This document shows, one piece after another, positions 1,038-14,460 of a DNA stretch of 14,460 bases; position 1 is the first letter of the stretch, and every line of letters begins with the position of its first letter. Made by a program: the position numbers and the translations under genes. The stretch is taken from positions 1-14,460 of IMG/VR virus record IMGVR_UViG_2645727821_000004; one strand, 5' to 3'. Below the pieces are notes generated by a model. It ran no database searches and was not told the DNA's origin. It worked only from the letters and a program-made list of their open reading frames with translations. This DNA is from a virus. Lineage: Duplodnaviria; Heunggongvirae; Uroviricota; Caudoviricetes.

Positions 1038-1676
1038 TTACCAGTCAATCCAGAGCGGACCGTGTTCAGCGTAAATATAACTGTACACATCCAGATTATA
1101 TTTGTGGTCTGTTAAGAACAGGCCGCAAATACATGCCGAAGCTTCCAGGGCAGCGGCTCTGTTACTGAATAACCATGTAGCAACATTCCAGCGTTTTTCT
1201 GCATCCCAGTCTTTCTCAAGGCCTGATACCATGAAGAAACCGTTAGTGTTGCCATCAAATAATTCTGTTTCCAGATTTTTAAGCAATGCCTGATGGACTC
1301 TTGCCAGGTATTCCGCCGGAATTTCGCCACGAATTCTGATGAGATTGTCATAAACAAACATGTTCCCCGCATATGGCGATTTTTCTTTCTTGTTTTTTAA
1401 ACCAGCATCATGAGCAAACTGTTCAATTTCTTCTTCCGTTGGTTTCGTATTGATGTTTTGCGCTGTCGTTTCTGCAATTTTCTTTGCCACACTCTCTGAG
1501 TCGTGTTTATTTACAGACGCACAGAAATACAATCCGGTAAACGCATCGCGCACATTACGAGCCATATTATCAGTGTCTTTTTTCGTTACCGATTCCAATG
1601 CAAGTTCGTTCAGACGATGACGAAGTGTGTGTGCTGCAATCTCCTGGATTGAAGTAGGTAAATCTTTAAATTCCAT
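1038..1676 (-). CDS. hypothetical protein (212 aa), unknown function, in repressor-controlled leftward operon
   Basis: Track ORF 1038..1688. ATG at 1676-1674 is preferred because GAGG sits 6 nt upstream on the minus strand; the ATG at 1688 has no SD. Soluble protein, no motif I recognise. Confidence 0.55.
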   Translation of the reverse strand: MEFKDLPTSIQEIAAHTLRHRLNELALESVTKKDTDNMARNVRDAFTGLYFCASVNKHDSESVAKKIAETTAQNINTKPTEEEIEQFAHDAGLKNKKEKSPYAGNMFVYDNLIRIRGEIPAEYLARVHQALLKNLETELFDGNTNGFFMVSGLEKDWDAEKRWNVATWLFSNRAAALEASACICGLFLTDHKYNLDVYSYIYAEHGPLWIDW

Positions 1677-1687
1677 CGTCAACCTCA

Positions 1688-1840
1688 TCAGTCAGAGTTT
1701 CTTGCTAACCAGCGATGCGCGCCAGCTTCGGTTTTAAACGTTTTACTTTTGGTATACGTCATCGCGGTGAACGTGCCGTCCTGGTTGGGAAACACGCCGT
1801 ACACCAGAGATTCGTTGTTGCCAAGATCGATAGTATCCAT
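1688..1840 (-). CDS. small protein (50 aa), first gene of leftward operon; YdfA-like by position
   Basis: Track ORF 1688..1921. Internal ATG at 1840-1838 has an AGG-N5 SD and gives MDTIDLGNNESLVYGVFPNQDGTFTAMTYTKSKTFKTEAGAHRWLARNSD, matching the expected ~51-aa YdfA size. The 77-aa start at 1921 also has a GAGG SD and cannot be excluded. Confidence 0.5.
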   Translation of the reverse strand: MDTIDLGNNESLVYGVFPNQDGTFTAMTYTKSKTFKTEAGAHRWLARNSD

Positions 1841-2022
1841 GCTGACCTCATTTCCCCTTAACGCCGGGGTAGCGGAACAAAAACCTGCTGCATAGTTATT
1901 AAAGTTGAACCCTGCCGTCATGTTCTTACGCCTCGGGCTGGCTACTTAACCCCTGACCACTGCCTGGTAACTCGAAGTATTGCCCTGCGTTCTGTGGGGC
2001 GGGGTGGGTTGGCATGAAAGGA

Positions 2023-2063
2023 AGGATACCCATGGGTATTTAAAAAGTAAATACCCATGGGTA
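2023..2063 (-). promoter_or_regulatory. Leftward early promoter candidate (PL/PdicB-like) with two identical 12-bp palindromic operators
   Basis: Perfect palindrome TACCCATGGGTA at 2027-2038 and 2052-2063 (25-bp centre spacing). Minus-strand -35 TTTACT (plus 2046-2051) and -10 TATCCT (plus 2023-2028) with 17-bp spacer; the -10 overlaps operator 1. Confidence 0.5.
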
Positions 2064-2107
2064 ATTTTTTTTGATGTATCTTAACCGGTGACTGATTGTT
2101 TGGTGAG

Positions 2108-2527
2108 TTATGATGCGTTTTGTGCTTTCTTTTTACGGATTTCTTCGTAGATCATATTGTAATACTGTTTTTTCTCTTCAAGAGTTTTTAATAAGTTATC
2201 CGCTTCACTTTCTGGTAGTTCGTCTAAGAGATCTAAAAAAATACGTTGTCGTGGCGTTAGAACCCTTGTTTCATAATTGGAGGCTGTGTTCGTTGATGAT
2301 GAAACGATACCATCCATCCATCCCCGAGGTAACCCAAAGGACTCTTCTATAATCTCCACCATATCATCTGCGATCCGTTTTTTTCCTTTTTTCCCCTCTG
2401 GGTACAACATTCTTGATACATAAGAAGGCTCGCGACCGATCTTTCTGGCCACGTTAACCGCTTTACCATCGCATTTCTCATCACGAATTTTGATGAGTTG
2501 TTGTCGTCTAAATTCATATTTGTCCAT
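2108..2527 (-). CDS. Prophage immunity repressor, HTH, DicA/RacR-like; no S24 peptidase domain
   Basis: Track ORF 2108..2569 (TTG start would read through the operators); ATG at 2527-2525 preferred, 139 aa. HTH-like AVNVARKIGREPSYVSRML. C-terminus with LPESEADNLL resembles recalled DicA (ALPESEQD). Divergent from the cro-like gene across an operator-rich 100-bp region. Confidence 0.7.
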   Translation of the reverse strand: MDKYEFRRQQLIKIRDEKCDGKAVNVARKIGREPSYVSRMLYPEGKKGKKRIADDMVEIIEESFGLPRGWMDGIVSSSTNTASNYETRVLTPRQRIFLDLLDELPESEADNLLKTLEEKKQYYNMIYEEIRKKKAQNAS

Positions 2528-2548
2528 AGGTAAATAATAGATGCGATT

Positions 2549-2603
2549 ACCGCAAGGTAAACAACCCAAGGGTATTGACTTTTGTTTACCCGCAGGTATT
2601 CTT
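2549..2603 (+). promoter_or_regulatory. Rightward early promoter (PR-like) with three operator 12-mers (OR1-3 analogues)
   Basis: TACC-N4-GGTA 12-mers at 2549-2560, 2563-2574 and 2587-2598. -35 TTGACT at 2575-2580, -10 TATTCT at 2597-2602 (16-bp spacer). AAGGAG SD at 2617-2622 precedes the cro-like ATG at 2628. Confidence 0.55.
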
Positions 2604-2627
2604 TGCTGTGTTTACTAAGGAGTAGCT

Positions 2628-2909
2628 ATGGAAGAATTAAGAATATTTCTCAATTCTCTTTCGTCAGATGAACAGCGTATGTTTGCATGTGAGTGTGGTA
2701 CTAGCATCGGTTATCTAAGAAAGGCATTGAGTAAAGGTCAAGTGTTAGGGGCATCGTTATGTGTCCTTATTGAGCGAGCCAGTAATGGTGAAGTTACACG
2801 TCAGCAACTAAGGCCTTTTGATTGGATGAATATTTGGCCTGAGCTGGAAGATACCAAAACGTTAACACAACCACTTTCTAGGAGCTTGATTCATGAAAAT
2901 CAGGCATGA
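2628..2909 (+). CDS. Cro-like HTH regulator (YdaS/DicC-type)
   Basis: 93 aa with strong SD; HTH-like CECGTSIGYLRKALSKG; a ...QLRPFDW motif resembles recalled YdaS. First gene rightward of the operators. Confidence 0.65.
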   Translation: MEELRIFLNSLSSDEQRMFACECGTSIGYLRKALSKGQVLGASLCVLIERASNGEVTRQQLRPFDWMNIWPELEDTKTLTQPLSRSLIHENQA

Positions 2910-3318
2910 ACACATCCGCATGGCGATGAATGCATGGGCGCGTCCTGATGGTGAAAAAGTTCCTGCGGCTGAGATAACCAGGGCGTATTTCGAACTGGGT
3001 ATGACGTTCCCGGAACTGTACGACGACAGCCACCCAGAAGCCCTGGCGCGTAATACCCAGAAAATTTTCCGCTGGGTAGAGAAAGACACCCCTGATGCAG
3101 TTGAAAAAATTCAGGCGTTGTTACCGGCGATCGAAAAGGCAATGCCGCCTCTGCTGGTGGCCAGAATGCGCAGCCACAGTTCAGCTTATTTTCGGGAGCT
3201 GGTGGAGATGCGGGAACGACTGGTGAGAGACGCTGATGATTTTGTCGCGGTGGCAATAGCTGGCTTCAACCAGATCAACCGTGGTGGCCCGGCCGGAAAT
3301 GCTGTGGCTGTGCATTGA
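2893..3318 (+). CDS. YdaT-like protein (CII functional analogue / toxic regulator family)
   Basis: 141 aa; AGGAG SD at 2880-2884. Starts MKIRHEHI and ends ...VH, with KIQALLPAI motif, as in recalled Rac YdaT. Overlaps the cro-like gene by 17 nt. Confidence 0.65.
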   Translation: MKIRHEHIRMAMNAWARPDGEKVPAAEITRAYFELGMTFPELYDDSHPEALARNTQKIFRWVEKDTPDAVEKIQALLPAIEKAMPPLLVARMRSHSSAYFRELVEMRERLVRDADDFVAVAIAGFNQINRGGPAGNAVAVH

Positions 3319-3389
3319 TCGGCAATATTCATACCGGATCTCTTTCGGTAATACGTGATTAAAAAGATTCGGTATCTGAAGAGGTTAGT

Positions 3390-4460
3390 ATGGCTAATGC
3401 CTGGCTCAGATTATGGCATGACATGCCAAATGACCCCAAGTGGCGAACCATTGCCCGGGTGTCAGGTCAGCCAATTGCAACAGTGATGGCTGTGTATATC
3501 CACCTCCTGGTGAGCGCGTCACGAAATGTCACGCGAGGTCACGTTGATGTCACGACCGAGGATTTGGCAAGCGCGCTCGATGTGACAGAAGAGGTGATTG
3601 ATTCAATTTTGCAGGCAATGCAGGGGCGGGTTCTGAAGGGGGATCTTATCACCGGATGGGAAAAACGCCAGGTACTGAAGGAGGATAACGGTAACGTTTC
3701 GCCAACCGCAAAATCCCCGGCAGAGCGCAAGAGAGCGCAGCGGGAGAGGGAAAGGCAGCGGGAGCAAAATGGCGACTGTCACGGCGTGTCACGAAATGTC
3801 ACGCACATGTCACGACGAGTCACGACAGATAAAGATACAGATAAAGATACAGATCAAGAAGATCAAAACACTATGGTTCATGGCGAGAAAAACGCCACGA
3901 ACCTGACAGGGGATGTTCAGACCGTCAATCCTGGTCAGCCGGCAGGCACGACACCGGAAGCCGATTCAGCGTATGCGCTGAAAGCCGATTCGGGCGCTGT
4001 GCAGCAGGCGATGGTCGCCGGACCGGAGAGATCACACCAACCGCAGCAGCCTGAAGCCGATTCCGCCCTTCAGCGGGAAGCCGATCGGGTAGTCCCGGAA
4101 AACACCGGGCAGCCTGTGGGACGAGTGGATTACCCGGACGGGTTCGAACAGGTCTGGCGGGAATATCCGCTGCGTGCCGGGGCAAATCCGAAGAAATCCG
4201 CGTTCAGTGCCTGGAAGGCCAGGTTACGCGAGGGGGTGCCACCGCAGGTCATGCTGGATGGTGTGAGGCGTTACGCGAGGTACCTGGCGGCGACCGGGAA
4301 AGCGGGAACGGAATTTGTTCAGCGGGCGACAACGTTTTTTGGACCTGACCGGAATTTTGAAAACCCCTGGTTGCTCCCGACTGGCGGGACGAACAACCAG
4401 CGTTGTGTGAATCATATTTCCGAACCGGATACCGAAATTCCACCAGGTTTCAGGGGGTGA
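3390..4460 (+). CDS. Replication initiator (lambda O-like / YdaU-like) containing an internal origin
   Basis: 356 aa; GAAGAGG SD. Lies immediately upstream of the DnaC-like gene; iteron arrays and an AT-rich tract inside the coding sequence (next two features) parallel lambda ori within O. Confidence 0.7.
   Translation: MANAWLRLWHDMPNDPKWRTIARVSGQPIATVMAVYIHLLVSASRNVTRGHVDVTTEDLASALDVTEEVIDSILQAMQGRVLKGDLITGWEKRQVLKEDNGNVSPTAKSPAERKRAQRERERQREQNGDCHGVSRNVTHMSRRVTTDKDTDKDTDQEDQNTMVHGEKNATNLTGDVQTVNPGQPAGTTPEADSAYALKADSGAVQQAMVAGPERSHQPQQPEADSALQREADRVVPENTGQPVGRVDYPDGFEQVWREYPLRAGANPKKSAFSAWKARLREGVPPQVMLDGVRRYARYLAATGKAGTEFVQRATTFFGPDRNFENPWLLPTGGTNNQRCVNHISEPDTEIPPGFRG
3518..3554. repeat. 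Iteron array 1: four GTCACG repeats at 10-11 bp periodicity
   Basis: GTCACG at 3518, 3528, 3538 and 3549, read directly from the sequence. Confidence 0.7.
3778..3866. repeat. Iteron array 2 (five GTCACG repeats) plus adjacent AT-rich tandem repeats with two GATC sites; putative replication origin
   Basis: GTCACG at 3778, 3788, 3798, 3809 and 3819. Tandem AGATAAAGATAC at 3827-3838 and 3839-3850. GATC at 3852-3855 and 3861-3864. Confidence 0.65.
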
Positions 4461-4466
4461 AGGATT

Positions 4467-5213
4467 ATGAAAAATATAGCGACAGGAGGCGTTCTTGAAC
4501 GTATCCGCAAGCTGGCACCACAGCATGTAACCGCGCCGTACCGGACGGCAGAAGAGTGGCGTGAGTGGCAACTTGCGGAAGGCCAGAAACGTTGCGAGGA
4601 GATCAACCGTCAGAATCGTCAGTTGCGGGTGGAAAAAATTCTGAATCGCTCCGGTATCCAGCCGTTGCACCGCAAATGTTCGTTTGCGAATTACCGGGTG
4701 CAGAACGACGGCCAGCGATATGCGCTGAGCCAGGCAAAATCCATCGCGGACGTACTGATAACCGGATGCACAAATTTCGTGTTCAGCGGTAAGCCGGGTA
4801 CCGGAAAAAATCACCTGGCAGCCGCCATTGGTAATCATCTTCTGGAGAAAGGTCGCAGCGTGATTGTGGTCACGGTGGCTGATGTGATGCTGGCGCTACA
4901 CGGCAGCTACGACAACAAAAACTCAGGCGAAAAATTTTTGCAGGGTTTGTGTGACGTTGACCTGCTGGTTCTGGATGAGATTGGCATGCAGCGTGATACG
5001 CGCAACGAACAGGTCACACTGAACCAGATCGTCGATCGCAGAACAGCCGCGATGCGCAGTGTCGGGCTGCTGACGAACCTGAACCATACCGCAATGAGCA
5101 CCCTGCTTGGCTGGCGCGTGATGGACCGCATGACCATGAACGGTGGGCGCTGGGTGAATTTTAACTGGGAGAGCTGGCGTCCGAATGTCGGTCAGCCAGG
5201 AATTGAAAAGTAA
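4467..5213 (+). CDS. DnaC-like AAA+ helicase loader (phage replication protein P analogue, YdaV-like)
   Basis: 248 aa. Walker A GKPGTGKNHLA and Walker B LLVLDEIG. Start 7 nt after the initiator stop, with GGTGAAGGA SD. Confidence 0.85.
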   Translation: MKNIATGGVLERIRKLAPQHVTAPYRTAEEWREWQLAEGQKRCEEINRQNRQLRVEKILNRSGIQPLHRKCSFANYRVQNDGQRYALSQAKSIADVLITGCTNFVFSGKPGTGKNHLAAAIGNHLLEKGRSVIVVTVADVMLALHGSYDNKNSGEKFLQGLCDVDLLVLDEIGMQRDTRNEQVTLNQIVDRRTAAMRSVGLLTNLNHTAMSTLLGWRVMDRMTMNGGRWVNFNWESWRPNVGQPGIEK

Positions 5214-5237
5214 TTTTTATCGGGGAGAAAAAATTTA

Positions 5238-6008
5238 ATGGAAACCGTTTTAGACGCACTGAAAGCGATGGGAAAAGCCACGTCGGTAGAACTGGCTACG
5301 CGACTTGATATCAGTCGTGAAGAAGTGCTGAACGAGCTGTGGGAACTGAAAAAGGCTGGCTTCGTTGATAAAAGCGTATACACCTGGCGTGTGGCTGGCG
5401 AAGGTGAATCCGGGGTAGCCGAAGAGCAGCCAGCACAATCTGAAGCACAGGATGTGCTAACCAGGGAGGTCGAACGAAAAGTTACCGCTGACATGATGAT
5501 TGAGTTTATCAGTCAGGAGGGGGCTAAAACGTGTGAGGAGCTGGCGGGTAAGTTCGGTGTCAGTACTCGCAAGGTTGCTTCCACGCTGGCGGTAGTAACC
5601 GCAACGGGGCGGCTGGCACGCGTTAATCAGAACGGTAAATTTCGTTACTGCATACCGGGCGATAATTTACCAGCAGAGCCGAAAGCTGCATCGGTAACAG
5701 AAGCTGATGGTAAATCCTTTCCTCTGCCATCAGGTGTTGCGTTACCAGTACAGGAGGCTGCAACACAGGAAGATATTAAAACAGAAACGGCGGCGGACAT
5801 TGTGCAGTCGCTACCACCGTTTACCGAAACGCAAGCGGATGACCTGGTTTTATCATCGCTGCATATGGCAAACCGCGAGCTGCGTCGGGCGAAAAGTTAT
5901 GTCCAGAAGTGGGAGCGTGTCTGCGCCGCGCTGCGGGAGCTGAACAAGCACCGGGATATTGTTCGACTGATTGTCGATTCCTCCAGTCGTATTGTGTCGG
6001 AAAAGTGA
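5238..6008 (+). CDS. hypothetical protein with two winged-helix-like modules and an acidic linker
   Basis: 256 aa; GGGAGA SD. wHTH-like segments [28 protein letters not shown] and [29 protein letters not shown]. Confidence 0.55.
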
Positions 6009-6022
6009 TTGCCGGAGGCGCT

Positions 6023-6445
6023 ATGGCAAAAGTATTTACACAGGAAGAGCGGGAAGATGTGAAGGCTCGCATTGTGGAACTGGTACGCAGGGATGGGCGG
6101 AAAACGCGTAAACAACTGGAAAATGAAACCGGGGCGACGAGACATCTGATAGAAGTTCTGACGAAAGAGCTGGTAGCCAGTGGTGTTGTATATGGCTCAG
6201 GGTATGGAATATTTCCTTCAGAGCAGGCACGTAAGGACTGGATGAAAGCCATTGAAAAGATGTCGAAAGCAAAGTCAAAGAAACTGGCTGTGGTTGATCC
6301 TTACCTTATCTGGTCATTACCAGACGGAGAAATACGTCGTTACGACAGGCGCCTGAACATGATTTGTCACGATTGCCGGAAGAGCGAAGCTATGCAGCGT
6401 GTACTGGCTTTCTATCAGGGTAATTTTCAGGAGGCGATACTGTGA
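6023..6445 (+). CDS. hypothetical winged-helix-like protein (141 aa)
   Basis: ATG at 6023 with GGAGG SD at 6014-6018, inside track ORF 5909..6445 whose GTG start overlaps the upstream gene. Confidence 0.5.
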   Translation: MAKVFTQEEREDVKARIVELVRRDGRKTRKQLENETGATRHLIEVLTKELVASGVVYGSGYGIFPSEQARKDWMKAIEKMSKAKSKKLAVVDPYLIWSLPDGEIRRYDRRLNMICHDCRKSEAMQRVLAFYQGNFQEAIL

Positions 6446-6502
6446 GTGAAATTAGCTATCAGGCTTCAATTACCGCTGGCATTCGCATCAAAGGAGAGGA
6501 GC

Positions 6503-6859
6503 ATGGAAATAAAACCAGAAGATGAGTTAAGCAATATCGTTTTATTTCCGATAAAAGAGGATGACCCTCGTAATCAGGTTAATTTTCTTTATGAGCCATC
6601 GGAAAGACCATATTGCCATCACACTTCTGTCCGGGTTGACGAAAAAGAGCGTCAGGTCCGCTGTAAAATCTGCGGTGCAGTTGTGGAACCATTTGACTGG
6701 ATGCTCTCTGTGGCGAAAAGAGAAACCAGGATGGCAGATGATGTAAAACAATTGCGCCAGGAGGAACGGGAAAGGCGAAAAAATATAGAAAAGCTAATTC
6801 AGATTGAGCGCAACGTGAAAGCGCGGATACGCAGGGCGACAAAAGCCCGAACTGAATAA
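6503..6859 (+). CDS. hypothetical zinc-ribbon protein (118 aa)
   Basis: ATG at 6503 with AAAGGAGAGGAG SD, inside track ORF 6446..6859. Candidate zinc ribbon CHH ... CKICG; basic coiled C-terminus. Confidence 0.5.
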   Translation: MEIKPEDELSNIVLFPIKEDDPRNQVNFLYEPSERPYCHHTSVRVDEKERQVRCKICGAVVEPFDWMLSVAKRETRMADDVKQLRQEERERRKNIEKLIQIERNVKARIRRATKARTE

Positions 6860-6955
6860 TTAAATTTGGCACAGAACATAAAATTAATCCTTAACCGGAG
6901 GGATTTATGCACCCTCAGAACATCAGGAGGCCACCCGAAAAGGCGGTAGTGAAAA

Positions 6956-7363
6956 ATGGCTGAATTAACCAAAGAGCAATTAATCGAAGAAGTTAAATTA
7001 AAAATAGCGATTGCGAAATGCCATCCCAATTCAGGCGTGGCACGAGTAGAGGGTGAGTTATTCAAAATTGCAGTGACATCGCTGGAAGCAGAACCGATAG
7101 CGTGGGAATGCGGTGAAAACATAATCCTGTTTAATCCTGACACAGTTGAAGCATACGCAAAACGTGCGGAGATATCACCTAAACCACTATTCGCCGCCCC
7201 ACCTGTGCTGGTAGTGCCTGAAGGGCTTGTTAAAGCGGTACGCTTTTATGAACAGGTAAAGTGTGAGAATCCGCCAGCCGAAACCGGAGCATGGAAAGAC
7301 GCTGTTGACTGGGTACTCGAAGAAGCTTGCCAGGCTGTAAACATTGGCATCAAAGGAGGGTGA
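6956..7363 (+). CDS. hypothetical phage protein (135 aa), DUF550-like N-terminal module
   Basis: N-terminus LTKEQLIEEVKLKIAIAK ... VTSLEAE is paralogous to the N-terminus of the 7656..8471 product. Confidence 0.5.
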   Translation: MAELTKEQLIEEVKLKIAIAKCHPNSGVARVEGELFKIAVTSLEAEPIAWECGENIILFNPDTVEAYAKRAEISPKPLFAAPPVLVVPEGLVKAVRFYEQVKCENPPAETGAWKDAVDWVLEEACQAVNIGIKGG

Positions 7364-7364
7364 T

Positions 7365-7652
7365 ATGGCAACTTTGCAGGAATTAATCGACCTGACGCCA
7401 GAACAGGAAAAAGCGTGGAATCGCCTTGTGAAGGCTGTAAAGGATTTCAGGGCAGCCGGAGGAAAGTTTTATAGCGTCCTGGACACGCTGAGCGCATACA
7501 ACGGCGAGCACGTTGCCAGCATTGATAACGATAAGGGCTACCACACTGCAAGCGTCTATATGCCTAGCATTGATGCGCCAGGGCTAACCAGTTGGGCTGA
7601 TGATTGGCACGGCATCACGCTGAAAGATGGCGTTGAAGTGGATGAGGACTAA
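7365..7652 (+). CDS. hypothetical protein (95 aa)
   Basis: ATG at 7365 with AAAGGAGGG SD at 7352-7360, inside track ORF 7344..7652 (TTG start). Confidence 0.5.
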   Translation: MATLQELIDLTPEQEKAWNRLVKAVKDFRAAGGKFYSVLDTLSAYNGEHVASIDNDKGYHTASVYMPSIDAPGLTSWADDWHGITLKDGVEVDED

Positions 7653-7655
7653 CAC

Positions 7656-8471
7656 ATGACTACTTTTACCGACAAAGAACTGATTAAAGAAATCAAAGAG
7701 CGCATAGGCAGCCTGGACGTTCGAGACAATATTGAGCGCCGGTCGTATGAAATTGCACTGGCATCGCTGGAACGCGAACAGATTCGCCACGAGCATGCCA
7801 AATGGTCTGACTCCACATTTGGCTGCGTTGGCCCCATTGGTCCACTGAAACACCTCTCAAAAGAGGCACTGGAAGCCGCAGCCGAACCAGACGATCTTAG
7901 CGAGTGGGCTGATATGCAGTTTCTGTTGTGGGATGCACAGCGCCGTGCTGGCATCAGCGATGCTGAAATTAACGTTGCTATGGAAGATAAATTGAAGATC
8001 AACATGGAGCGCCAGTGGCCTGAGCCAAAAGATGGTGAGCCTCGCTTGCACATTAAAGAACCCGGCAACTCTCCGGTAATTCCGGATGGTTTATCCACGG
8101 TATGCGCTGAGGCTTATCAGGTTGTAGGAGTTATGGCAGATGCGCTTGGTGTATTCGGTGATGCAGCAGTACAGAAAGTTCTGGATAACCTGTCACAGCA
8201 AAAACTTGTTCACAGAGATGTGCTGCCGTTCTCGCTTCCGGTAACTCCGGATGGTTGGATAAGCTGTAGTGATCGAATGCCTGAAAAGGGCCAGAACGTG
8301 CTTATTTCGGTGAATTTCGATAGCTCTCTGGTTGAACCGCTAATATGCTCCGCACGCTATACCGGAAGCACCTTTCGGCGCGGAGATGCAACGATTAAGC
8401 CGGGTAATGGTATTGAGCAAGCAACTCACTGGATGCCGCTACCGGAACCGCCGCAGGAGGTGAATCAATGA
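7656..8471 (+). CDS. phage protein with DUF550-like N-terminus and DUF551-like C-terminus
   Basis: 271 aa. C-terminal PDGWISCSDRMPEKGQNVLISV ... THWMPLPEPP is typical of DUF551 as I recall it. Confidence 0.6.
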   Translation: MTTFTDKELIKEIKERIGSLDVRDNIERRSYEIALASLEREQIRHEHAKWSDSTFGCVGPIGPLKHLSKEALEAAAEPDDLSEWADMQFLLWDAQRRAGISDAEINVAMEDKLKINMERQWPEPKDGEPRLHIKEPGNSPVIPDGLSTVCAEAYQVVGVMADALGVFGDAAVQKVLDNLSQQKLVHRDVLPFSLPVTPDGWISCSDRMPEKGQNVLISVNFDSSLVEPLICSARYTGSTFRRGDATIKPGNGIEQATHWMPLPEPPQEVNQ

Positions 8472-8551
8472 GCTGGCCTGAAGCGTTCACAACGGTAGGA
8501 ATTGCAATGGCGGTGGCGCTGGTGGTGTATTCTATTTGCCGCTGGGGGTAA
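8468..8551 (+). CDS. small hydrophobic peptide (27 aa, MSWPEAFTTVGIAMAVALVVYSICRWG)
   Basis: ATG overlaps the upstream stop (ATGA at 8468-8471); AGGAGG SD at 8455-8460. One predicted transmembrane helix. Below the track size cut-off. Confidence 0.4.
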   Translation: MSWPEAFTTVGIAMAVALVVYSICRWG

Positions 8552-8711
8552 GGTATTGAAAAACGCCCACACACATAAGTTGGGCACCTGAGTTGCGGGG
8601 ATAGGGAGTTAGTTAAATAGTTATACAACAATACCTGATTTTGTATTGAAGCAAGGAAGAGGTTGCCACATATTGAATCATGCACGTGTACGTCAAATGC
8701 GGGAGGTCATC

Positions 8712-8801
8712 GTGCTGGTTCTGAAATGTGCGCTGGCTATTGCGGCTGTAATGGCAATTTATTGTCTTGTTATTGTTCTTATGGATCACCTTTCTGATTG
8801 A
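8712..8801 (+). CDS. small hydrophobic peptide (29 aa, GTG start, MLVLKCALAIAAVMAIYCLVIVLMDHLSD)
   Basis: GGGAGG at 8701-8706, 5 nt before GTG at 8712; stop TGA at 8799-8801. Possible promoter TTGAAG-N17-CATATT upstream (~8648-8676). Confidence 0.3.
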   Translation: MLVLKCALAIAAVMAIYCLVIVLMDHLSD

Positions 8802-8955
8802 TTTTATATTGGCGAGGTGACGAGAGTTAAGTAGAATTGCTGCGGGTGCTTGAGGCTATCTGCCTCGGGCATGAACAGCAACGGCAGATAGATAAAAGCC
8901 CCAGTTAACATTACGCGTCCTGCAAGACGCTTAACATTAATCTGAGGCCCAATCT

Positions 8956-9153
8956 ATGCTTCACAAACGTAGGTTAGCCTCTTACGAGCCGAAAGGCAAG
9001 GAGAAGCAGGCTATGAAGCAGCAAAAGGCGATGTTAATCGCCCTGATCGTCATCTGTTTAACCGTCATAGTGACGGCACTGGTAACGAGGAAAGACCTCT
9101 GCGAGGTACGAATCCGAACCGGCCAGACGGAGGTCGCTGTCTTCACAGCTTAA
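8956..9153 (+). CDS. mok-like reading frame (in-frame N-terminal extension of hok)
   Basis: ATG at 8956 in frame with hok, as in recalled chromosomal mokC/hokC. 65-aa track ORF. Confidence 0.4.
   Translation: MLHKRRLASYEPKGKEKQAMKQQKAMLIALIVICLTVIVTALVTRKDLCEVRIRTGQTEVAVFTA
9013..9153 (+). CDS. hok: Hok/Gef-family type I toxin (HokD/RelF-like), apparently truncated by a premature stop (46 aa)
   Basis: MKQQKAMLIALIVICLTVIVTALVTRKDLCEVRIRTGQTEVAVFTA matches recalled HokD up to a TAA at 9151-9153. In-frame continuation GAA CCT GAG GAG TAA encodes EPEE-stop, the canonical Hok C-terminus. Confidence 0.8.
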   Translation: MKQQKAMLIALIVICLTVIVTALVTRKDLCEVRIRTGQTEVAVFTA

Positions 9154-9239
9154 GAACCTGAGGAGTAAGAGACCAGGCGGGGGAGAAATCCCTCGCCACC
9201 TCTGATGTGTCAGGCATCCTCAATGCACCCACACTTAAC

Positions 9240-9256
9240 CCGCTTCGGCGTTTTTT
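9240..9256 (+). terminator. putative intrinsic terminator at 3' end of hok transcript
   Basis: CGC-TTCG-GCG short stem with UUCG tetraloop, then T6 (9251-9256). Stem is short. Confidence 0.4.
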
Positions 9257-9311
9257 CGTTGATTAACTCTAGTTATCAGAGAACCGAACTTTTACTGATG
9301 GGGGCAGGGAG

Positions 9312-9704
9312 ATGAAGAAACTTGTTTTAGTTGCAGGTGTAATGATTGCAACAGTAATGTTGGGAGGGTGTGCAGCAAAGGTCGATCCTGCGTTGAAAGC
9401 AGAAGCAATGAAGCCACTAACATGTAAAGATGAAAAGCAATGTGACTTTTATTGGAAACGCGCGCAATTCTGGTTGGCTAATAATTCCGCATGGAAAATT
9501 CAAACGGCGACAGACACGCTAATTTCCACTTATAACCCCTCACCAAATAGTCCACTCCTCGCTTATCAAGTGAGTAAAATGCCAAATGAAGATGGATCCT
9601 CAAGAATTTTCATCCAGCCTTTTTGCGATAATATGTTTGGCTGTCAACCAAACCTCTATCAGGCGGTTGTTTCCTTCAAAAACTTCGTTAGAACTGGGCA
9701 GTAG
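9312..9704 (+). CDS. prophage lipoprotein (130 aa), function unknown
   Basis: Signal peptide MKKLVLVAGVMIATVMLGGC with lipobox LGGC; GGGAG SD. Confidence 0.65.
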   Translation: MKKLVLVAGVMIATVMLGGCAAKVDPALKAEAMKPLTCKDEKQCDFYWKRAQFWLANNSAWKIQTATDTLISTYNPSPNSPLLAYQVSKMPNEDGSSRIFIQPFCDNMFGCQPNLYQAVVSFKNFVRTGQ

Positions 9705-9896
9705 TGTATAGCGGGGACGGTAAATTATTAGTGAAAACGCCGTGAACCCTCACCCAATGTGAGCTAACCCCATCAAACATGACTGTGATGATTAGCATAC
9801 CCGCTTCAGCGAGTTTTGTTTTTTCCGGGAATTCTGGTTTACAATCTGCACGCCAGCCTGAACAACTGGCACCTGCTGCGCCAGCAGAGAAAACAA

Positions 9897-10169
9897 ATGG
9901 CGCACAATACCAAAAATCACAATTCTGATGCCGTTCGTGCCAGCAGGCATGGGCGGCGTTCGCGCGTATTTAAAACCGACTGGTACCAACACCCTCCATG
10001 CACTGAAGAACAGGCCGAATGGCTGATTCAGTGTTACCGCAGACACGGATACGAGATTAAGAAAGCCCTCAGCCTCGATTATCGTCACTGGATAATCTCC
10101 GTCAGGCTTCCTTACTCCGAACGCCCACCGCGTCCGTCCCGCACATTCCAGCAACGGATCTGGAGGTAA
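9897..10169 (+). CDS. small basic protein (90 aa), Rem-like by position
   Basis: ATG at 9897 inside track ORF 9816..10169. Sits immediately upstream of the YdfU-like gene as rem does in Qin. Candidate promoter TTGTTT-N18-TACAAT at 9816-9845. Confidence 0.45.
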   Translation: MAHNTKNHNSDAVRASRHGRRSRVFKTDWYQHPPCTEEQAEWLIQCYRRHGYEIKKALSLDYRHWIISVRLPYSERPPRPSRTFQQRIWR

Positions 10170-10170
10170 C

Positions 10171-11217
10171 GTGCGGGTATTACTTCGACCTGTTCTGATA
10201 CCGGAACTCGGGCTGGTGGTCCTTAAGCCCGGTCGTGAATCCATGCCGGTATTTCACAATCCTCGAGTGCTGGTGGAGCCGGAACCGAAAAGTATGTGCG
10301 GCCTGCCATCCGGAGTCGTCCCTGCCGTTCGCCAGCCGCTGGCGGAGGATAAATCATTACTGCCATTTTTCAGCGATGATCGGGTGATTCGTGCTGTTGG
10401 CGGCGCTGGGGCACTGTCTGACTGGCTGTTGCGTCATGTCAAATCCTGCCAGTGGCCTCATGGTGACTATCATCACAGTGAAATCGTCATACATCGTTAC
10501 GGTACCGGCGCGATGGTGTTGTGCTGGCACTGCGACAACCAGCTGCGTGACCAGACATCCGAATCACTCGAGCAACTTGCTCATCAAAACCTGTCAGCAT
10601 GGATGATTGACGTCATCGGTCACGCAATAAGCGGTACGCAGGAGCGTGAATTATCTCTGGCTGAATTATCCTGGTGGGCGGTCCGCAATCAGGTGGCGGA
10701 CGCGCTACCGGAAGCGGTATTACGTCGTTCGCTGGGGTTGCGTGCGGAAAAAATCCGCTCAATGTACCGTGAAAGCGACATCGTACCGGGAGAGCAGACC
10801 GCCACCAGCATACTGAAGCAGCGCACAAAAAATCTTGCGCCGCTGCCTCACGCCCACCAGCAAAACCCGCCACAGGAAGAGGCGGTGGTCAGCATTGCCG
10901 TTGATCCGGAGTCTCCGGAATCTTTCATGAGACGACCTAAACGTCGCCGTTGGGTAAAGGAGAAATATACGCGCTGGGTGAAGACACAGCCGTGTGCGTG
11001 TTGTGGTCAACCAGCCGACGATCCCCATCACCTGATTGGTCACGGTCAGGGAGGGATGGGAACAAAGGCCCACGATATTTTCACGCTACCGTTGTGCCGG
11101 GAACATCACAACGAACTTCATGCGGATCCGCTGGCGTTCGAAGAAAAGCATGGCTCTCAGGTTGATTTAATTTTTCGTTTTCTTGATCACGCCTTTGCAA
11201 CCGGCGTGCTTGGGTAA
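10171..11217 (+). CDS. YdfU-like DUF968 protein (348 aa) with HNH-like C-terminal Cys/His cluster
   Basis: GTG start 1 nt after the upstream stop; GGAGG 5 nt upstream. C-terminal CACCGQPADDPHHLIGHGQGG ... CREHHNELH. Length matches recalled YdfU (~349 aa). Confidence 0.7.
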   Translation: MRVLLRPVLIPELGLVVLKPGRESMPVFHNPRVLVEPEPKSMCGLPSGVVPAVRQPLAEDKSLLPFFSDDRVIRAVGGAGALSDWLLRHVKSCQWPHGDYHHSEIVIHRYGTGAMVLCWHCDNQLRDQTSESLEQLAHQNLSAWMIDVIGHAISGTQERELSLAELSWWAVRNQVADALPEAVLRRSLGLRAEKIRSMYRESDIVPGEQTATSILKQRTKNLAPLPHAHQQNPPQEEAVVSIAVDPESPESFMRRPKRRRWVKEKYTRWVKTQPCACCGQPADDPHHLIGHGQGGMGTKAHDIFTLPLCREHHNELHADPLAFEEKHGSQVDLIFRFLDHAFATGVLG

Positions 11218-11229
11218 AAGAGGTTACTG

Positions 11230-11592
11230 ATGCGTATAGAGCTTGTTTTGCCTTACCCGCCAACGGTGAACACCTACTGGCGACGTCGTGGCAGCACATA
11301 TTTTGTATCAAAAGCCGGTGAGCGTTATCGCCGGGATGTGGCGCTTATTGTTCGTCAGCAGCGACTGAAATTAAATCTGTCCGGTAGGCTGGCAATCCGA
11401 ATTATTGCAGAGCCACCGGATAAACGCCGCCGTGACCTGGACAATATCCTGAAAGCACCACTGGATGCGCTGATGCATGCCGGACTTCTCATAGACGACG
11501 AGCAGTTTGATGAAATTAATATAGTGCGCGGTCAGCCTGTTCCTGGTGGGCGGCTGGGCGTGAAGATTTACGAAATAATGCATGACGGGTAG
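11230..11592 (+). CDS. rusA: RusA Holliday-junction resolvase
   Basis: 120 aa. PYPPTVNTYWRRR ... DKRRRDLDNILKAPLDAL ... GGRLGVKIYEI aligns to the RusA family including the catalytic acidic cluster. AAGAGG SD. Confidence 0.85.
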   Translation: MRIELVLPYPPTVNTYWRRRGSTYFVSKAGERYRRDVALIVRQQRLKLNLSGRLAIRIIAEPPDKRRRDLDNILKAPLDALMHAGLLIDDEQFDEINIVRGQPVPGGRLGVKIYEIMHDG

Positions 11593-11600
11593 GTCCAAAA

Positions 11601-12422
11601 ATGAAACTGGAAGATTTACCGAAATACTATTCCCCAAAATCGCCAGGTCTGACTGATGCATCCGTCTCGACGTCAAAAGATGTGCTGAGCATCACTGATG
11701 TGATGGCTGCGCAGGGTATGACACAAAACCGGGCTGAGATGGGATTTTCTGCGTTCCTGGGGAAAATGGGCATCAGTATGAATGACAGGGCGCGGGCAAC
11801 AGAATTACTGGCAGATTATGCACTCAGTCGGTGCGATCGCGTGGCGGCGTTGAGAAAACTTCCGGCAGAAATAAAACCGGCAGTGATGCGTATTATGGCT
11901 TCGTACGCTTTTGAGGATTATGCCCGCAGTGCAGCGAGTAAAAAACAGTGCCCTTGTTGCGGTGGGAAAAAATTTATTGAAAGCGTAGTTTTTACAAACA
12001 AGGTCCAGTATCCGGATGGCAAGCCGCCAGTATGGGCAAAGTGTACAAAAGGCGTGTATCCGTCTTACTGGGAGGAATGGAAAAAAGTCCGGGAGGTGGT
12101 GAAAGTCTCCTGTCCAGAATGCAAAGGGAAAGGGGAGGTTTCTACGGCCTGTAAAGATTGCCGTGGACGTGGTGTTGCCATTCATCGTGAAGAGTCGGAA
12201 AAACGGGGTATGCCTGTTATCAGAGACTGCCAGCGTTGTGGTGGTCGTGGCTATGAAAGATTACCGTCGACGGAGGCATTTAATGCCATATGTGAGGTAA
12301 CAAAGCAGATAACACGCGCGTCATGGGAAAAAACTGTTAAGCAATTCTATGACACGCTGGTGATTAAGTTTGATATTGAGGAAGCATGGGCAGAGCGGCA
12401 GTTAAAAAAGGTAACCAGATAA
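11601..12422 (+). CDS. putative late-gene antiterminator Q (QuuQ/phage-82-like), with four CxxCxGxG zinc-finger-like motifs
   Basis: 273 aa. Position between rusA and a promoter/terminator pair is the Q slot. Motifs CPCCGGKK, CPECKGKG, CKDCRGRG, CQRCGGRG. Call is by position and zinc-binding character. Confidence 0.55.
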   Translation: MKLEDLPKYYSPKSPGLTDASVSTSKDVLSITDVMAAQGMTQNRAEMGFSAFLGKMGISMNDRARATELLADYALSRCDRVAALRKLPAEIKPAVMRIMASYAFEDYARSAASKKQCPCCGGKKFIESVVFTNKVQYPDGKPPVWAKCTKGVYPSYWEEWKKVREVVKVSCPECKGKGEVSTACKDCRGRGVAIHREESEKRGMPVIRDCQRCGGRGYERLPSTEAFNAICEVTKQITRASWEKTVKQFYDTLVIKFDIEEAWAERQLKKVTR

Positions 12423-12427
12423 CAATG

Positions 12428-12456
12428 TTGATTTTTCCGGAATCTGTGGTAAATTT
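12428..12456 (+). promoter_or_regulatory. candidate late promoter (PR'-like) just downstream of Q
   Basis: TTGATT at 12428-12433 with TAAATT/AAATTT 16-17 bp downstream; 6 nt after the Q stop. Confidence 0.35.
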
Positions 12457-12502
12457 ATCCTAACGATGGGCGTTTTATGCCTGACGTTAAAAGATTTTTT
12501 AC

Positions 12503-12526
12503 AACCCGCCGCCGTGCGGGTTTTTT
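12503..12526 (+). terminator. intrinsic terminator (tR'-like)
   Basis: Stem AACCCGC/GCGGGTT (12503-12509 / 12516-12522), loop CGCCGT, followed by a T-run. Confidence 0.65.
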
Positions 12527-12630
12527 GTTGGTTTAACAGGTTATAATGTATAGTGCGAAACTGCCTGTTCAGCAGAATCATTTTGTTTGTAGTAGAGTTC
12601 ACAAGTCGTCATTATCAGGCAAAGAGATTT

Positions 12631-13032
12631 ATGGTATTAAAGTATCAGCCGTCTGTTCGTTCTGTTTTAATGTGTGATTTTCGGGGAATGGTTGTTCCGG
12701 AAATAGTCAAGGCCAGGCCAGTGGTAGTAGTATCCAGAAACAGACACAACAATCAATTGGTAACAGTGGTACCAATAAGCACTACTGAACCGATCCCTCG
12801 CAGAGATTGCCATCATGAGTTATCAGAAAACCCCATTCCTGGTAATGAGCATATTACTTGCTGGGTAAAATGTGACATGTTGATGACGGTTTCATTGAGC
12901 CGACTGGATCGCATAAAAACCAGAAACTGGGAGGGGCGAAATTATATTGTTCCTATGATTGCGGAAGATGAGTTTGAGAATATTAAACGGGCGGTATTGC
13001 ACGGGATAGGGATGGCTTATCTGTATCGATAA
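12631..13032 (+). CDS. MazF/PemK-fold toxin-like protein (133 aa) with no adjacent antitoxin ORF
   Basis: By-eye parallel to MazF: CDFRG ... E..KARPVVVVSRNRHNNQLVTVVPISTT vs MazF VDFDP ... RPAVVLSPFMYNNKTGMCLCVPCTT; C-terminal ...IKRAVLHGIG vs ...KINVLIG. Perfect TATAAT at 12542-12547 upstream. Confidence 0.6.
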   Translation: MVLKYQPSVRSVLMCDFRGMVVPEIVKARPVVVVSRNRHNNQLVTVVPISTTEPIPRRDCHHELSENPIPGNEHITCWVKCDMLMTVSLSRLDRIKTRNWEGRNYIVPMIAEDEFENIKRAVLHGIGMAYLYR

Positions 13033-13067
13033 TCGAAAACGATTATCGAATTCGATATAAATTTATA

Positions 13068-13096
13068 TTGACACACATAGTGTGTTGACTGATACT
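13068..13096 (+). promoter_or_regulatory. strong sigma70-like promoter candidate with embedded inverted repeat
   Basis: TTGACA at 13068-13073, 17-bp spacer, GATACT at 13091-13096. Spacer holds ACACA-TAG-TGTGT and a second TTGAC. Confidence 0.5.
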
Positions 13097-13185
13097 GTCG
13101 CTGTACCCTGATGGGACTTGTGAGACTTCCGAACAGGAAGCCAGGAGTAGCGATAAGGTGATGACAAGCCTGCTGCCCCTGTGTA

Positions 13186-13217
13186 AAAGGCATCTTAATG
13201 GTGCCTTTGTCATTTTT
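13186..13217 (+). terminator. terminator-like hairpin 1
   Basis: Stem AAAGGCA/TGCCTTT (13186-13192 / 13202-13208), 9-nt loop, T5 at 13213-13217. Confidence 0.45.
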
Positions 13218-13228
13218 ATCAAAAGTTC

Positions 13229-13251
13229 CCCGCCATTGAGCGGGTTTTTTT
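13229..13251 (+). terminator. intrinsic terminator 2
   Basis: Stem CCCGC/GCGGG (13229-13233 / 13240-13244), loop CATTGA, T7 at 13245-13251. Confidence 0.65.
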
Positions 13252-13374
13252 ATGCCTGAAAAACGACACAGGACGTTAAACGCGCTGGTGGTTGCGAATA
13301 TCAGTTTTTCAGCTTGCTGGCTTTTCAGACAAGAGTTATTGGTATGTCACGTTAACCAGAAAAGGGAAAAAGAC

Positions 13375-13572
13375 ATGCTAAAACAGCAGGATATGACCGA
13401 AACCGCCAGAGTGGTGTTTAATGAATTAAGCGTCACCGAACCGACGACCGTCGGGGAGATTGCGCAGAATACTTACCTTTCACGCGAATGCTGCCAGTTA
13501 ATACTGACCCAGCTTGTTATGGCGGGCCTGGCAGATTATCAGTTTGGTTGTTACAGACGCCTTCCGCAGTGA
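13375..13572 (+). CDS. small winged-helix DNA-binding protein (65 aa), PapI/FaeA-like
   Basis: ATG at 13375 with AAGGGAAA SD, inside track ORF 13252..13572. ARVVFNELSVTEPTTVGEIAQNTYLSRECCQLILTQLVMAGLADYQ aligns by eye to PapI; the similarity is modest. Confidence 0.45.
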   Translation: MLKQQDMTETARVVFNELSVTEPTTVGEIAQNTYLSRECCQLILTQLVMAGLADYQFGCYRRLPQ

Positions 13573-13581
13573 AGGCTTTTT
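13559..13581 (+). terminator. intrinsic terminator overlapping the wHTH gene stop codon
   Basis: Stem GCCTTC/GAAGGC (13559-13564 / 13571-13576), loop CGCAGT, T5 at 13577-13581. Confidence 0.65.
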
Positions 13582-13722
13582 AATTTGTGGTAATGGGCGG
13601 CTGGTGGGTGTTAGCGGCACCTGCCAGCCATCTGCTCATGCGTTGGGGTCACAAGCAAACCTCAGGCCCATCTGCTTTGCGCAAAAGCGGTATGAGCCTA
13701 TCAGAGAAGCGCTTATTGATCT

Positions 13723-14460
13723 ATGGCTAATACTGTAAAAATATCCAGTTGTGAGTTAATCAACGCTGATTGCCTGGAATTTATCCAGACCTTACCGGAA
13801 AACTCTGTCGATCTGATAGTCACAGACCCGCCATACTTTAAAGTGAAACCCAACGGCTGGGACAATCAGTGGAAAGGGGACGAAGATTACCTTAAGTGGC
13901 TGGACCACTGTCTGGCCCAGTTCTGGCGGGCGTTAAAACCTGCCGGAAGCCTTTACCTGTTCTGTGGGCATCGCCTGGCATCTGATATTGAGATCATGAT
14001 GCGTGAACGTTTCAACGTGCTTAACCATATCATCTGGGCGAAGCCGTCCGGACGTTGGAATGGGTGTAATAAAGAAAGTCTGCGCGCATATTTTCCTGCC
14101 ACAGAGCGCGTTCTGTTTGCTGAACATTACCAGGGGCCATATCGCGGCAAAAGTGACGGCTATGCGGCAAAAGAAAGGGAACTCAAACAGCACATAATGG
14201 CACCGCTGATTTCGTATTTCAGGGATGCTCGTGCCGAACTGGGTATAACGGCAAAACAAATTGCCGAAGCCACAGGTAAGAAAAATATGGTTTCCCACTG
14301 GTTTGGTGCCAGTCAGTGGCAGTTGCCGAATGAGGCTGACTATCGGAAGTTACAGGCACTGTTTTCCCGTATAGCGGCAGAGAAGTTTCAGGAACAACAA
14401 CTGGAACAACCACACCACCAGCTGGTGGCATCTTATGATTCACTGAATCGCAAATATTCT
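13723..14460 (+). CDS. DNA methyltransferase, N6-adenine/N4-cytosine beta class (DPPY motif), 5' part; runs off the window end
   Basis: Open frame from ATG 13723 to window end (246 codons). LPENSVDLIVTDPPY ... AGSLYLFCG ... HIIWAKP follows the CcrM/M.HinfI-type motif order. Not in the track because it has no stop in the window. Confidence 0.8.
   Translation, partial: MANTVKISSCELINADCLEFIQTLPENSVDLIVTDPPYFKVKPNGWDNQWKGDEDYLKWLDHCLAQFWRALKPAGSLYLFCGHRLASDIEIMMRERFNVLNHIIWAKPSGRWNGCNKESLRAYFPATERVLFAEHYQGPYRGKSDGYAAKERELKQHIMAPLISYFRDARAELGITAKQIAEATGKKNMVSHWFGASQWQLPNEADYRKLQALFSRIAAEKFQEQQLEQPHHQLVASYDSLNRKYS

Follow-up and report, generated by a model that had tools for sequence, protein, structure and literature searches.

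A small structured RNA gene lies downstream of a MazF/PemK-family gene in the prophage DNA described here, IMG/VR virus record IMGVR_UViG_2645727821_000004 (positions 1 to 14,460; this whole 14,460-nt stretch is referred to as the window). The RNA, about 115 nt long and located at about 13103-13217, is a genuine stand-alone structured small RNA gene and not the leader of a downstream gene, and it is very probably the functional partner of the MazF-like protein encoded upstream of it. Judging from sequence comparison, we lean toward the interpretation that the RNA and the protein constitute a toxin-antitoxin pair within a two-gene mobile cassette, which would operate mainly through binding of the protein by the RNA, in a manner resembling type III systems.

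Results

A conserved RNA with covarying helices

The initial annotation, made from the sequence of the window alone, had marked 13068-13251 as a promoter-to-terminator unit and had proposed that it was either a stand-alone small RNA (sRNA), possibly an RNA antitoxin of the upstream gene, or an attenuator leader of the downstream winged helix-turn-helix (wHTH) gene. The promoter, the inverted repeat in the promoter spacer, the two terminators and an open reading frame (ORF) running through both hairpins were all recovered at the same positions. The RNA folded better than 200 of 200 shuffled sequences (z = -3.95). Its conserved core (13103-13183; this and all other parts of the RNA are on the plus strand) was matched at 102.6 bits by covariance model R1, which was built from five sequences, and at 84 bits by a second model, R2. 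The core comprises the P1 helix (13106-13108 with 13113-13115), the conserved linker ACUUGUGAGAC (13116-13126), the P2 helix (13126-13130 with 13136-13140) and the P3 helix in three segments (13142-13145/13178-13181, 13147-13151/13172-13176 and 13156-13159/13168-13171), the last of which carries the near-invariant P3 apical loop GAUGACAA (13160-13167). The loop motif AUGACAA was present in 107 of 136 aligned copies. Downstream of the core is P4, the RNA's own intrinsic terminator hairpin (13186-13208), with the tail UUUGUCAUUUUU extending to 13217. Across copies, the consensus starts with 5'-GUUCCC-(GNRA)-GGG-(G/A)CUUGYGAGACU, followed by the P2 hairpin (sometimes extended), AGC, P3a and P3b, and proceeds after P3b through a bulge, GGC, GAUGACAAG and CC toward the 3' end.

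Covariation was assessed in a 77-sequence alignment fitted to the covariance model. In this alignment 95.2% of cells were paired and 19 of 21 base pairs had changed on both sides (324 cells), a result equaled by none of 500 shuffles, while slid controls were 30-50% paired. When 35 full-length copies were aligned with MAFFT, without fitting to the model, RNAalifold independently recovered P1, P2, P3c and P4, again with covariation. Folding and covariation across homologs had been named as checks in the initial annotation, and both came out in favor of the unit. A GC-rich hairpin was found 2-8 nt past P3 in all copies, followed by the conserved tail CUUUGUC(A/G)UUUCU (motif present in 75 of 97 distinct copies), so that the first terminator belongs to the RNA itself. 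The pair of tandem terminators originally described is real, but its members differ in origin: the first is an integral, covarying part of the RNA, and the second is a duplicated copy of the phage terminator tR'.

The tail at 13207-13213 (UUGUCAU) is complementary to the loop at 13161-13167 (AUGACAA), and the sequences make a loop-to-3'-tail pseudoknot probable. In the MAFFT alignment this candidate helix was 93% paired, with compensatory changes at two of its six pairs. Loop variants occurred with matching tails (AUACCAA/UUGGUGU, AUAACAA/UUGUUUU and AUUACAA/UUGUGUU), and one distant clade switches its loop to GCAA together with a tail of UUGC. As an alternative pseudoknot, pairing of the linker (CUUGU) with the loop (ACAAG) was considered and rejected, since the 5' half of the linker varies (CCAGU, CCGGU, GAUUG, ACUUA) and the invariant loop does not compensate. 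A resemblance of the GUGAUGA sequence to a hammerhead or C/D box was dropped, as there was neither a helix II nor a GAAA element, nor an Rfam match. In a large metagenomic clade (L078-L107; for example L100, 1946-2043), the P2 loop is enlarged by an insertion of ~20 nt that folds into an additional hairpin (GGAUCCUGG...CCAGC).

With gathering and E-value thresholds applied, Rfam 15 left the RNA unmatched in the window and in eight diverse loci. The best sub-threshold matches were driven by the terminator and scored 14-20 bits against thresholds of 41-60, and the only Rfam matches elsewhere in the window or its relatives were to sok, DicF, int-alpA and C4. A BLAST search of the RNA against phage GenBank sequences returned no match.

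Transcription signals and coding potential of the unit

The sRNA is preceded by a sigma-70 promoter (13068-13096, plus strand) composed of a -35 element (TTGACA, 13068-13073), a 17-nt spacer and a -10 element (GATACT, 13091-13096), which together match 10 of 12 consensus positions. Terminator-like hairpins are located at 13186-13208, followed by a T-run, and at 13229-13244, followed by T7. The window holds three promoter-like sites against 2.9 expected, which is not beyond chance by itself, and four terminators against 1.6 expected. Since these matches are near the level of shuffled sequence, the argument depends on how the unit compares between loci. In 59 of 103 distinct loci (57%) there is a promoter-like site with a -10 element ending 6-7 nt before the first G of the RNA, compared to 0.7% of random positions. 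This fixed-distance promoter indicates that the RNA is an independent transcript of ~115 nt. The promoter spacer in the window carries a 6+6 inverted repeat (ACACAC-ATA-GTGTGT, 13071-13085) that is confined to the E. coli lineage and missing from the Klebsiella, Enterobacter and Xenorhabdus copies; no evidence for an operator role was found, as the repeat is not conserved.

The stretch of ~80 nt that separates the promoter from the terminators contains no conserved ORF. The sole plus-strand ORF inside the unit has 33 codons, starts at GTG 13158 or ATG 13161, ends at 13259 and spans both hairpins. It is not conserved; the ATG is ATT in Geobacter, and the length ranges from 11 to 32 codons among relatives. 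Translation of this mini-ORF (MTSLLPL...) was ruled out on the basis of the ATT start and the variable length, and the conserved nucleotides are explained instead by P3c and its loop. In some E. coli genomes, RefSeq has a 'hypothetical protein' and the beginning of an HTH protein overlapping the RNA (L001, 6119-6316; L002, 3159-4079), and these gene calls are probably spurious annotations of a non-coding gene.

Two palindromes lie around the upstream edge of the unit. A perfect 10-bp palindrome, TCGATAATCG-AAAA-CGATTATCGA (13026-13049, plus strand), is situated between the toxin stop codon and the RNA promoter, and a second, overlapping palindrome covers 13052-13071. Tandem Repeats Finder (TRF) reads 13025-13057 as a 13-nt repeat in 2.5 copies. 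The palindromes (13025-13071) are confined to the E. coli lineage, and the one at 13026-13049 may be a 3' stabilizer of the toxin mRNA or a protein-binding site.

A MazF-like protein encoded upstream

The gene upstream of the RNA (12631-13032, plus strand) encodes a 133-amino acid (aa) MazF/PemK-family ('YifN-like') protein, the proposed toxin, which matches Pfam PF02452 at 51.6 bits. An AlphaFold2 model of the protein had a pLDDT of 91, and its top 50 fold matches in the PDB were all MazF proteins (TM 0.66-0.82). At the positions of R29 and T52 in E. coli MazF, the catalytic residues of that enzyme, the family has the invariant residues R29 and S50. The protein family comprises 816 clusters at 50% identity (E <= 1e-10), and NCBI labels the protein a 'type II toxin-antitoxin system PemK/MazF family toxin'. 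Neither PADLOC nor NCBIfam has a family model that matches the MazF-like protein or the 65-aa ORF downstream of the RNA. By sequence, the putative toxin looks solitary and catalytically intact.

Linkage of the RNA and the MazF-like gene

The MazF-like protein has homologs in Enterobacter, Klebsiella, Atlantibacter, Arsenophonus, Xenorhabdus and Geobacter, and some sources name them 'YifN (PemK superfamily)'. A recognizable copy of the unit was present directly 3' of the homolog's stop codon in Enterobacter, Klebsiella, Xenorhabdus, Geobacter and one metagenome contig, without exception among the loci compared, and compensatory changes between the copies could be seen by eye. The homologs follow Q antiterminators of either Pfam family or occupy unrelated chromosomal sites, and their downstream neighbors differ from locus to locus (a holin, a tRNA, a cytochrome, an integrase or the 65-aa ORF). 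Conservation across phyla extends to the RNA region but not to the downstream genes, so that poor conservation relative to the flanks, which the initial annotation had named as grounds for abandoning the unit, was not observed.

A protein-profile scan yielded 160 loci (80 metagenomic, 80 viral), the proteins of which are 37-99% identical. With R1 the RNA was detected in 77 of 85 and 59 of 78 of the sources searched, and R2 added more. Covariance models detected the RNA in at least 134 of the 160 protein-anchored loci. Most of the remaining misses carry a recognizable diverged variant with the same layout. Searching in the opposite direction, a protein-independent, exact-pattern DNA scan of IMG/VR identified 31 viral loci, ~20 of which have the gene immediately upstream. 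The RNA almost always starts 10-130 nt past the toxin stop codon on the same strand. Linkage is kept after rearrangement, with the RNA on the opposite strand in L073, L074 and L126. In L180-L185 the RNA is upstream of the toxin gene, on the same strand in L180, L182, L184 and L185 (about 2356-2460). No conserved protein neighbor of the toxin was found, the commonest family, an integrase, occurring in only 13 of 125 distinct loci. A scan of genome contigs with the MazF-like protein produced one weak partial match only. Among complete E. coli genomes, 24 had both toxin and RNA, 12 had the RNA only and none had the toxin only.

In E. coli K-12, yifN is a pseudogene, a frameshifted homolog in which the PPEMIKNR, VVPLSTT and WAKAD motifs are preserved. 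Just past it (L207, NC_000913.3 3959900-3960020, minus strand) come TTGACA-N17-GATAAT and a short terminated transcript, the CCCCUUGAGGGACCUGCGAAGCC part of which resembles P1 plus the linker. No covariance-model match was obtained at this locus, and P2, P3 and the GAUGACAAG loop are absent. The K-12 transcript may be a decayed or alternative partner RNA.

Borders of the cassette and copies lacking the toxin gene

The second terminator (13229-13251, plus strand) is a tR'-type copy that lies outside the conserved RNA, at the right edge of the cassette, and is missing from most non-phage copies. The terminators at 12505-12526 and 13229-13250 are direct repeats with 82% identity, and TTTTATGCCTGA is repeated with 12 of 12 matches at 12473-12484 and 13248-13259, flanking the toxin-RNA cassette. 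Similarity to phages that lack the cassette, such as phiP27, ends at ~12530 on the left and resumes at ~13238 on the right, inside the second terminator. The border similarity and the terminator repeats indicate that the toxin-RNA pair is a discrete insertion into the tR' region and that the second hairpin is a tR' copy. The arrangement suggests entry by recombination within the tR' region. In the lysogen, the RNA's terminator and the tR' copy would jointly keep transcription from the constitutive RNA promoter out of the late genes.

Clean deletions of the toxin gene that keep the RNA were found in L016, L029, L036 and 12 E. coli genomes (H45-H56). The toxin and the -35 element were removed at a CAT(A) microhomology that joins window position ~12581 to ~13078, and in some of these copies the 3' strand of P3 has also lost 1 nt. 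The RNA is also found without the toxin gene in the IMG/VR phages L024, L026-L028, L038, L040 and L043. In RNA-only phages such as L026 (6260-6500), the RNA is ~150 nt past Q and ~65 nt downstream of a promoter-like TTGATT...TATGCT; in L024/L026-type phages it would be made as a pR' leader and act as tR'. Phages are known to carry type III RNA alone, as is the case for the pseudo-ToxI of phage phiTE. The RNA-only phage copies may be an anti-toxin counter-measure or a simple remnant.

Complementarity between the RNA and toxin mRNAs

A stretch of the toxin 5' untranslated region (UTR) at 12599-12616 (plus strand) is complementary to two segments of the RNA. The sequence UCACAAGUC at 12599-12607 is complementary to RNA positions 13115-13123, and GUCAUUAUC at 12608-12616 is complementary to 13157-13165 over 9 bp, two of which are G-U, for adjacent sites of 9 + 9 bp in the window. 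A perfect complement of at least 7 nt to the P3 apical region was present in 18 of 103 toxin 5'UTRs, compared to about 2% expected from shuffles. In Klebsiella and Enterobacter the perfect complement reaches 11-12 nt and is located at -25. A U-to-C difference in the RNA (GGUGAUGAC versus GGCGAUGAC) is paralleled by an A-to-G difference in the UTR, and the loop variant AUAACAA of L181 is paralleled by UUAUCGC in its UTR.

In several other lineages, a perfect complement of 8-11 nt to the P3 loop region is found inside the toxin ORF (for example L116 at +125, L064 at +124 and L053 at +176). The UUGUCAU-type motif of the RNA tail is thus also encountered in the leaders and coding regions of toxin genes, and it could serve for pairing or be a sequence that the toxin itself recognizes.

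Prophage context

The window is a Qin/82-like lambdoid prophage in which Rfam matches a DicF RNA (439-490, minus strand) and hok/sok (8844-9153, plus strand), and Pfam identifies DUF968 and RusA genes. The two-domain Q antiterminator (PF03589) is encoded at 11601-12422 and is directly followed by a late promoter/terminator unit (12428-12528, plus strand), which is outside the RNA gene. This unit consists of a promoter (TTGATT-N16-TAAATT, 12428-12455), the stretch TATCCT-AACGATGGG and a terminator at 12503-12522 with a T-run. The TATCCT-AACGATGGG stretch is very like the pause-inducing region of lambda pR', with its AACGAT element. The pR'-tR' stretch is kept beside Q in sequenced phages (mEp460, vB_EcoS and others), in which similarity stops at ~12530, and it is annotated as 'terminator' in SfV. 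In the 208-nt gap between Q and the toxin gene, only pR'-tR' was found. No confident toxin promoter was identified; TATAAT (12542-12547) and TAGAGT (12593-12598) have no convincing -35 element.

Downstream of the RNA unit are the 65-aa ORF (13375-13572), which bears the annotation of a TrmB-family regulator in phiP27, and a gene for a DNA methylase that starts at 13723. The 65-aa ORF and the methylase occur without the RNA in phiP27 and in Stx phages. Among related loci, an int-alpA RNA is found in L046 (710-777) and a C4 antisense RNA in L162 (3757-3867), and in Enterobacter prophages a tRNA-like gene starts ~150 nt past the RNA (L004, about 3700).

Discussion

A model for the cassette

We propose that the cassette inserted between the Q/pR'-tR' unit of the phage and a second copy of tR'. 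The RNA would be made constitutively from its near-consensus promoter, end at its own terminator and fold into P1-P2-P3 plus the terminator hairpin, with the 3' tail pairing to the P3 loop. In this form it would hold the MazF-like endoribonuclease inactive, probably in the main through direct binding of the protein by the conserved surfaces of the RNA, as in type III systems. In enterobacterial copies the RNA may in addition pair with the toxin 5'UTR, at a site immediately preceding the ribosome-binding site. Expression of the toxin in the prophage may depend entirely on read-through that requires Q.

An antitoxin is the role we consider probable for the RNA, and it fits best because the putative toxin is solitary, looks catalytically intact and lacks a protein antidote, because its RNA partner is near-obligate and is driven by the stronger promoter, and because the contexts are mobile elements or prophages. 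The 12 RNA-only and zero toxin-only E. coli genomes also display the asymmetry that is expected of a toxin and its antidote. That suggestion of the initial annotation, a stand-alone sRNA and possible antitoxin of the upstream gene, gained support from the unit's own promoter and terminator and from the way the RNA tracks the MazF-like gene across phyla, irrespective of the downstream neighbor and of orientation. Recognition of the protein is argued by the invariant nucleotides and the fold, which are conserved across phyla while the toxin mRNAs differ, and we tentatively propose protein binding as the main mode of action.

Several observations weigh against this model. Most lineages have no complementarity between the RNA and the toxin mRNA, and the duplex energy of cognate pairs is only marginally better than that of non-cognate pairs (p = 0.019, confounded by GC content), so that any antisense component is lineage-specific at best. 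The pseudoknot has few independent compensatory events, since both partners are highly conserved, and the toxin has no confident promoter of its own. In the RNA-only copies the -35 element or the entire promoter is gone, and some have the 1-nt P3 deletion as well; they may represent decaying remnants and not orphan antidotes kept by selection. The same data would also fit an RNA that serves the protein as a cofactor or substrate rather than as an inhibitor.

Alternative functions

The last of these points leads to a different account of the pair, in which the RNA is a required partner of the protein (a scaffold, specificity determinant, sensor or processed substrate) and the resulting ribonucleoprotein complex is active, for example in phage defense. 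The near-obligate co-occurrence, the conserved fold and the invariant loop and linker nucleotides would be expected of such a complex, and the cassettes are found in prophage late regions or beside integrases or methylases, as defense genes often are. The loop also displays an ACA-containing motif, and ACA is the cleavage site of E. coli MazF. We nevertheless consider this account unlikely, as RNA-only loci exist and toxin-only loci do not, which better fits an antidote, and the stronger promoter belongs to the RNA; no member of the MazF family is known to require an RNA cofactor. Nearly as unlikely, and perhaps slightly more so, is a purely antisense mechanism of the type I kind, in which the P3 apical region (in E. 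coli also the linker) would pair with the toxin mRNA and block its translation or cause its decay, leaving the protein untouched. The enriched 5'UTR complements, including the long ones of Klebsiella and Enterobacter and the paired sites in the window, the matched substitutions in RNA and UTR and the coding-sequence sites of other lineages all speak for pairing. More than 75% of lineages, however, have no site, the positions of the sites vary, and cognate and non-cognate energies barely differ. Antisense pairing alone would also have no need of invariant nucleotides and a four-helix fold maintained from Enterobacterales to Geobacter with unconserved targets.

Two further accounts would leave the toxin gene out of the RNA's function. 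The RNA could be a prophage regulator that acts in trans on host targets and accompanies the toxin gene only as a passenger; regulatory sRNAs such as StxS and DicF are known to come from prophage regions downstream of Q, and DicF is present in the window. The linkage persists outside phages and across phyla with unrelated hosts and neighbors, and conserved host targets are therefore implausible, which makes a hitch-hiking regulator very improbable. The least probable account is that the unit acts as a leader or attenuator for the 65-aa wHTH gene and the methylase located downstream of it, as the initial annotation had alternatively supposed, or the phage's own short pR'-tR' transcript. Its position between Q and the late genes, the overlap of the 33-codon ORF with the hairpins and the location of the RNA ~65 nt past a promoter-like site following Q in L024/L026-type phages would be in keeping with such a role. 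The comparative data contradict the leader interpretation, as the downstream neighbor varies, the 65-aa gene and the methylase occur in phiP27 and Stx phages without the RNA, and the mini-ORF is unconserved. A lambda-like pR' with its AACGAT element and tR' is moreover present as a separate unit at 12428-12528, common to phages that lack the cassette.

Relationship to known systems

The type III systems ToxIN, CptIN and TenpIN pair a protein endoribonuclease toxin with a non-coding, pseudoknotted RNA antidote (PMC3401426, PMC5086642, PMC12283969). The pair described here resembles them in joining an RNase-type toxin to an RNA and in its residence in mobile elements and prophages, the known systems being linked to abortive infection. 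A further putative likeness is the production of RNA in excess, helped by a terminator. Type III criteria include an antitoxin made of a tandem direct-repeat array upstream of the toxin with a terminator between (PMC12283969). No tandem-repeat antitoxin array was detected by TRF in the window, in which the sole repeat was the 13-nt x 2.5 repeat at 13025-13057. The RNA is instead a single multi-helix copy of ~115 nt with its own promoter, usually downstream of the toxin and not upstream in one operon, although the subfamily of L180, L182, L184 and L185, with the RNA upstream on the same strand, has the classical type III arrangement. The toxin is MazF/PemK by sequence (PF02452 only) and by fold, and not of the ToxN/AbiQ type, and PADLOC returned no match. 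The assignment to type III is thus meant in the broad sense of direct inhibition of a protein by an RNA, which we infer from the invariant RNA nucleotides that are co-conserved with the protein family. The system would work like type III and yet is not a member of toxIN, cptIN or tenpIN, having a different toxin family and no tandem repeats.

The toxin shares its fold and the catalytic Arg and Ser/Thr positions with the type II systems MazEF and PemIK (Kis-Kid). Unlike those systems, it has no MazE/PemI-type gene or other conserved protein neighbor, the RNA being the sole conserved one. AvcID and AbiF are also similar in that a single, non-repeat sRNA is proposed to inhibit a protein toxin, and both are phage-defense modules (PMC12283969). 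Their toxins (a cytidine deaminase and AbiF) are unrelated to the MazF-like protein, and the RNA described here has no likeness to any Rfam family. Like the type I system hok/sok, the cassette has a constitutive small RNA with a loop that is complementary to the toxin mRNA leader in some lineages. In contrast to hok/sok, the toxin is a soluble 133-aa protein of a MazF-fold RNase family rather than a small hydrophobic membrane peptide, and the RNA is not encoded antisense to it and is conserved in structure and sequence far beyond target complementarity. The lambdoid pR'-tR' transcripts, which include the short lambda 6S RNA and the StxS of Stx phages, are likewise promoter-to-terminator units without an ORF between Q and the late genes, and the second terminator of the cassette is a tR' copy. 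The genuine pR'-tR' unit is, however, 640 nt upstream, and the RNA unit has no pause element, is part of an inserted cassette and is also found outside phages.

A 2025 survey of RNA-antitoxin systems lists toxIN, cptIN, tenpIN, AvcID and AbiF, none of which has a MazF/PemK toxin (PMC12283969). In the literature searched, with many subscription papers lying outside its coverage, no earlier description of the toxin-RNA pair was found. There is a chance, a little short of even, that the pair represents an undescribed toxin-antitoxin or defense family, in which a MazF-fold endoribonuclease (COG 'YifN') is controlled by a dedicated, non-repeat ~115-nt RNA with its own promoter, an integral terminator and a probable loop-to-tail pseudoknot, and not by a protein, and thus an RNA-antitoxin branch that combines inhibition of the protein with antisense pairing to the leader.

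Implications

The RNA is a well-supported new RNA family with strong covariation and is ready for Rfam. Its recognition flags a class of NCBI mis-annotation, in which the protein is labeled a 'type II toxin' and a spurious 'hypothetical protein' is placed over the RNA. The family extends from Enterobacterales prophages, including those of Shiga toxin-producing E. coli (STEC) beside the Stx-region methylase and tRNA genes, to Geobacter. In prophages of the Shiga-toxin type, the pair is likely an abortive-infection or addiction cassette in the Q-to-lysis region, where cargo affects phage and host fitness. If the proposed function is correct, phages that have the RNA only could use it as an anti-toxin counter-defense.

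MazF and PemK are textbook type II toxins with protein antitoxins, and solitary 'orphan' copies are annotated as type II, which leaves the tolerance of the cell toward them unexplained. A structured RNA as the sole constant neighbor offers a directly testable answer to how such orphan toxins are tolerated. If this answer holds true, a member of the MazF fold would join the few families with an RNA antitoxin, namely toxIN, cptIN, tenpIN, AvcID and AbiF.

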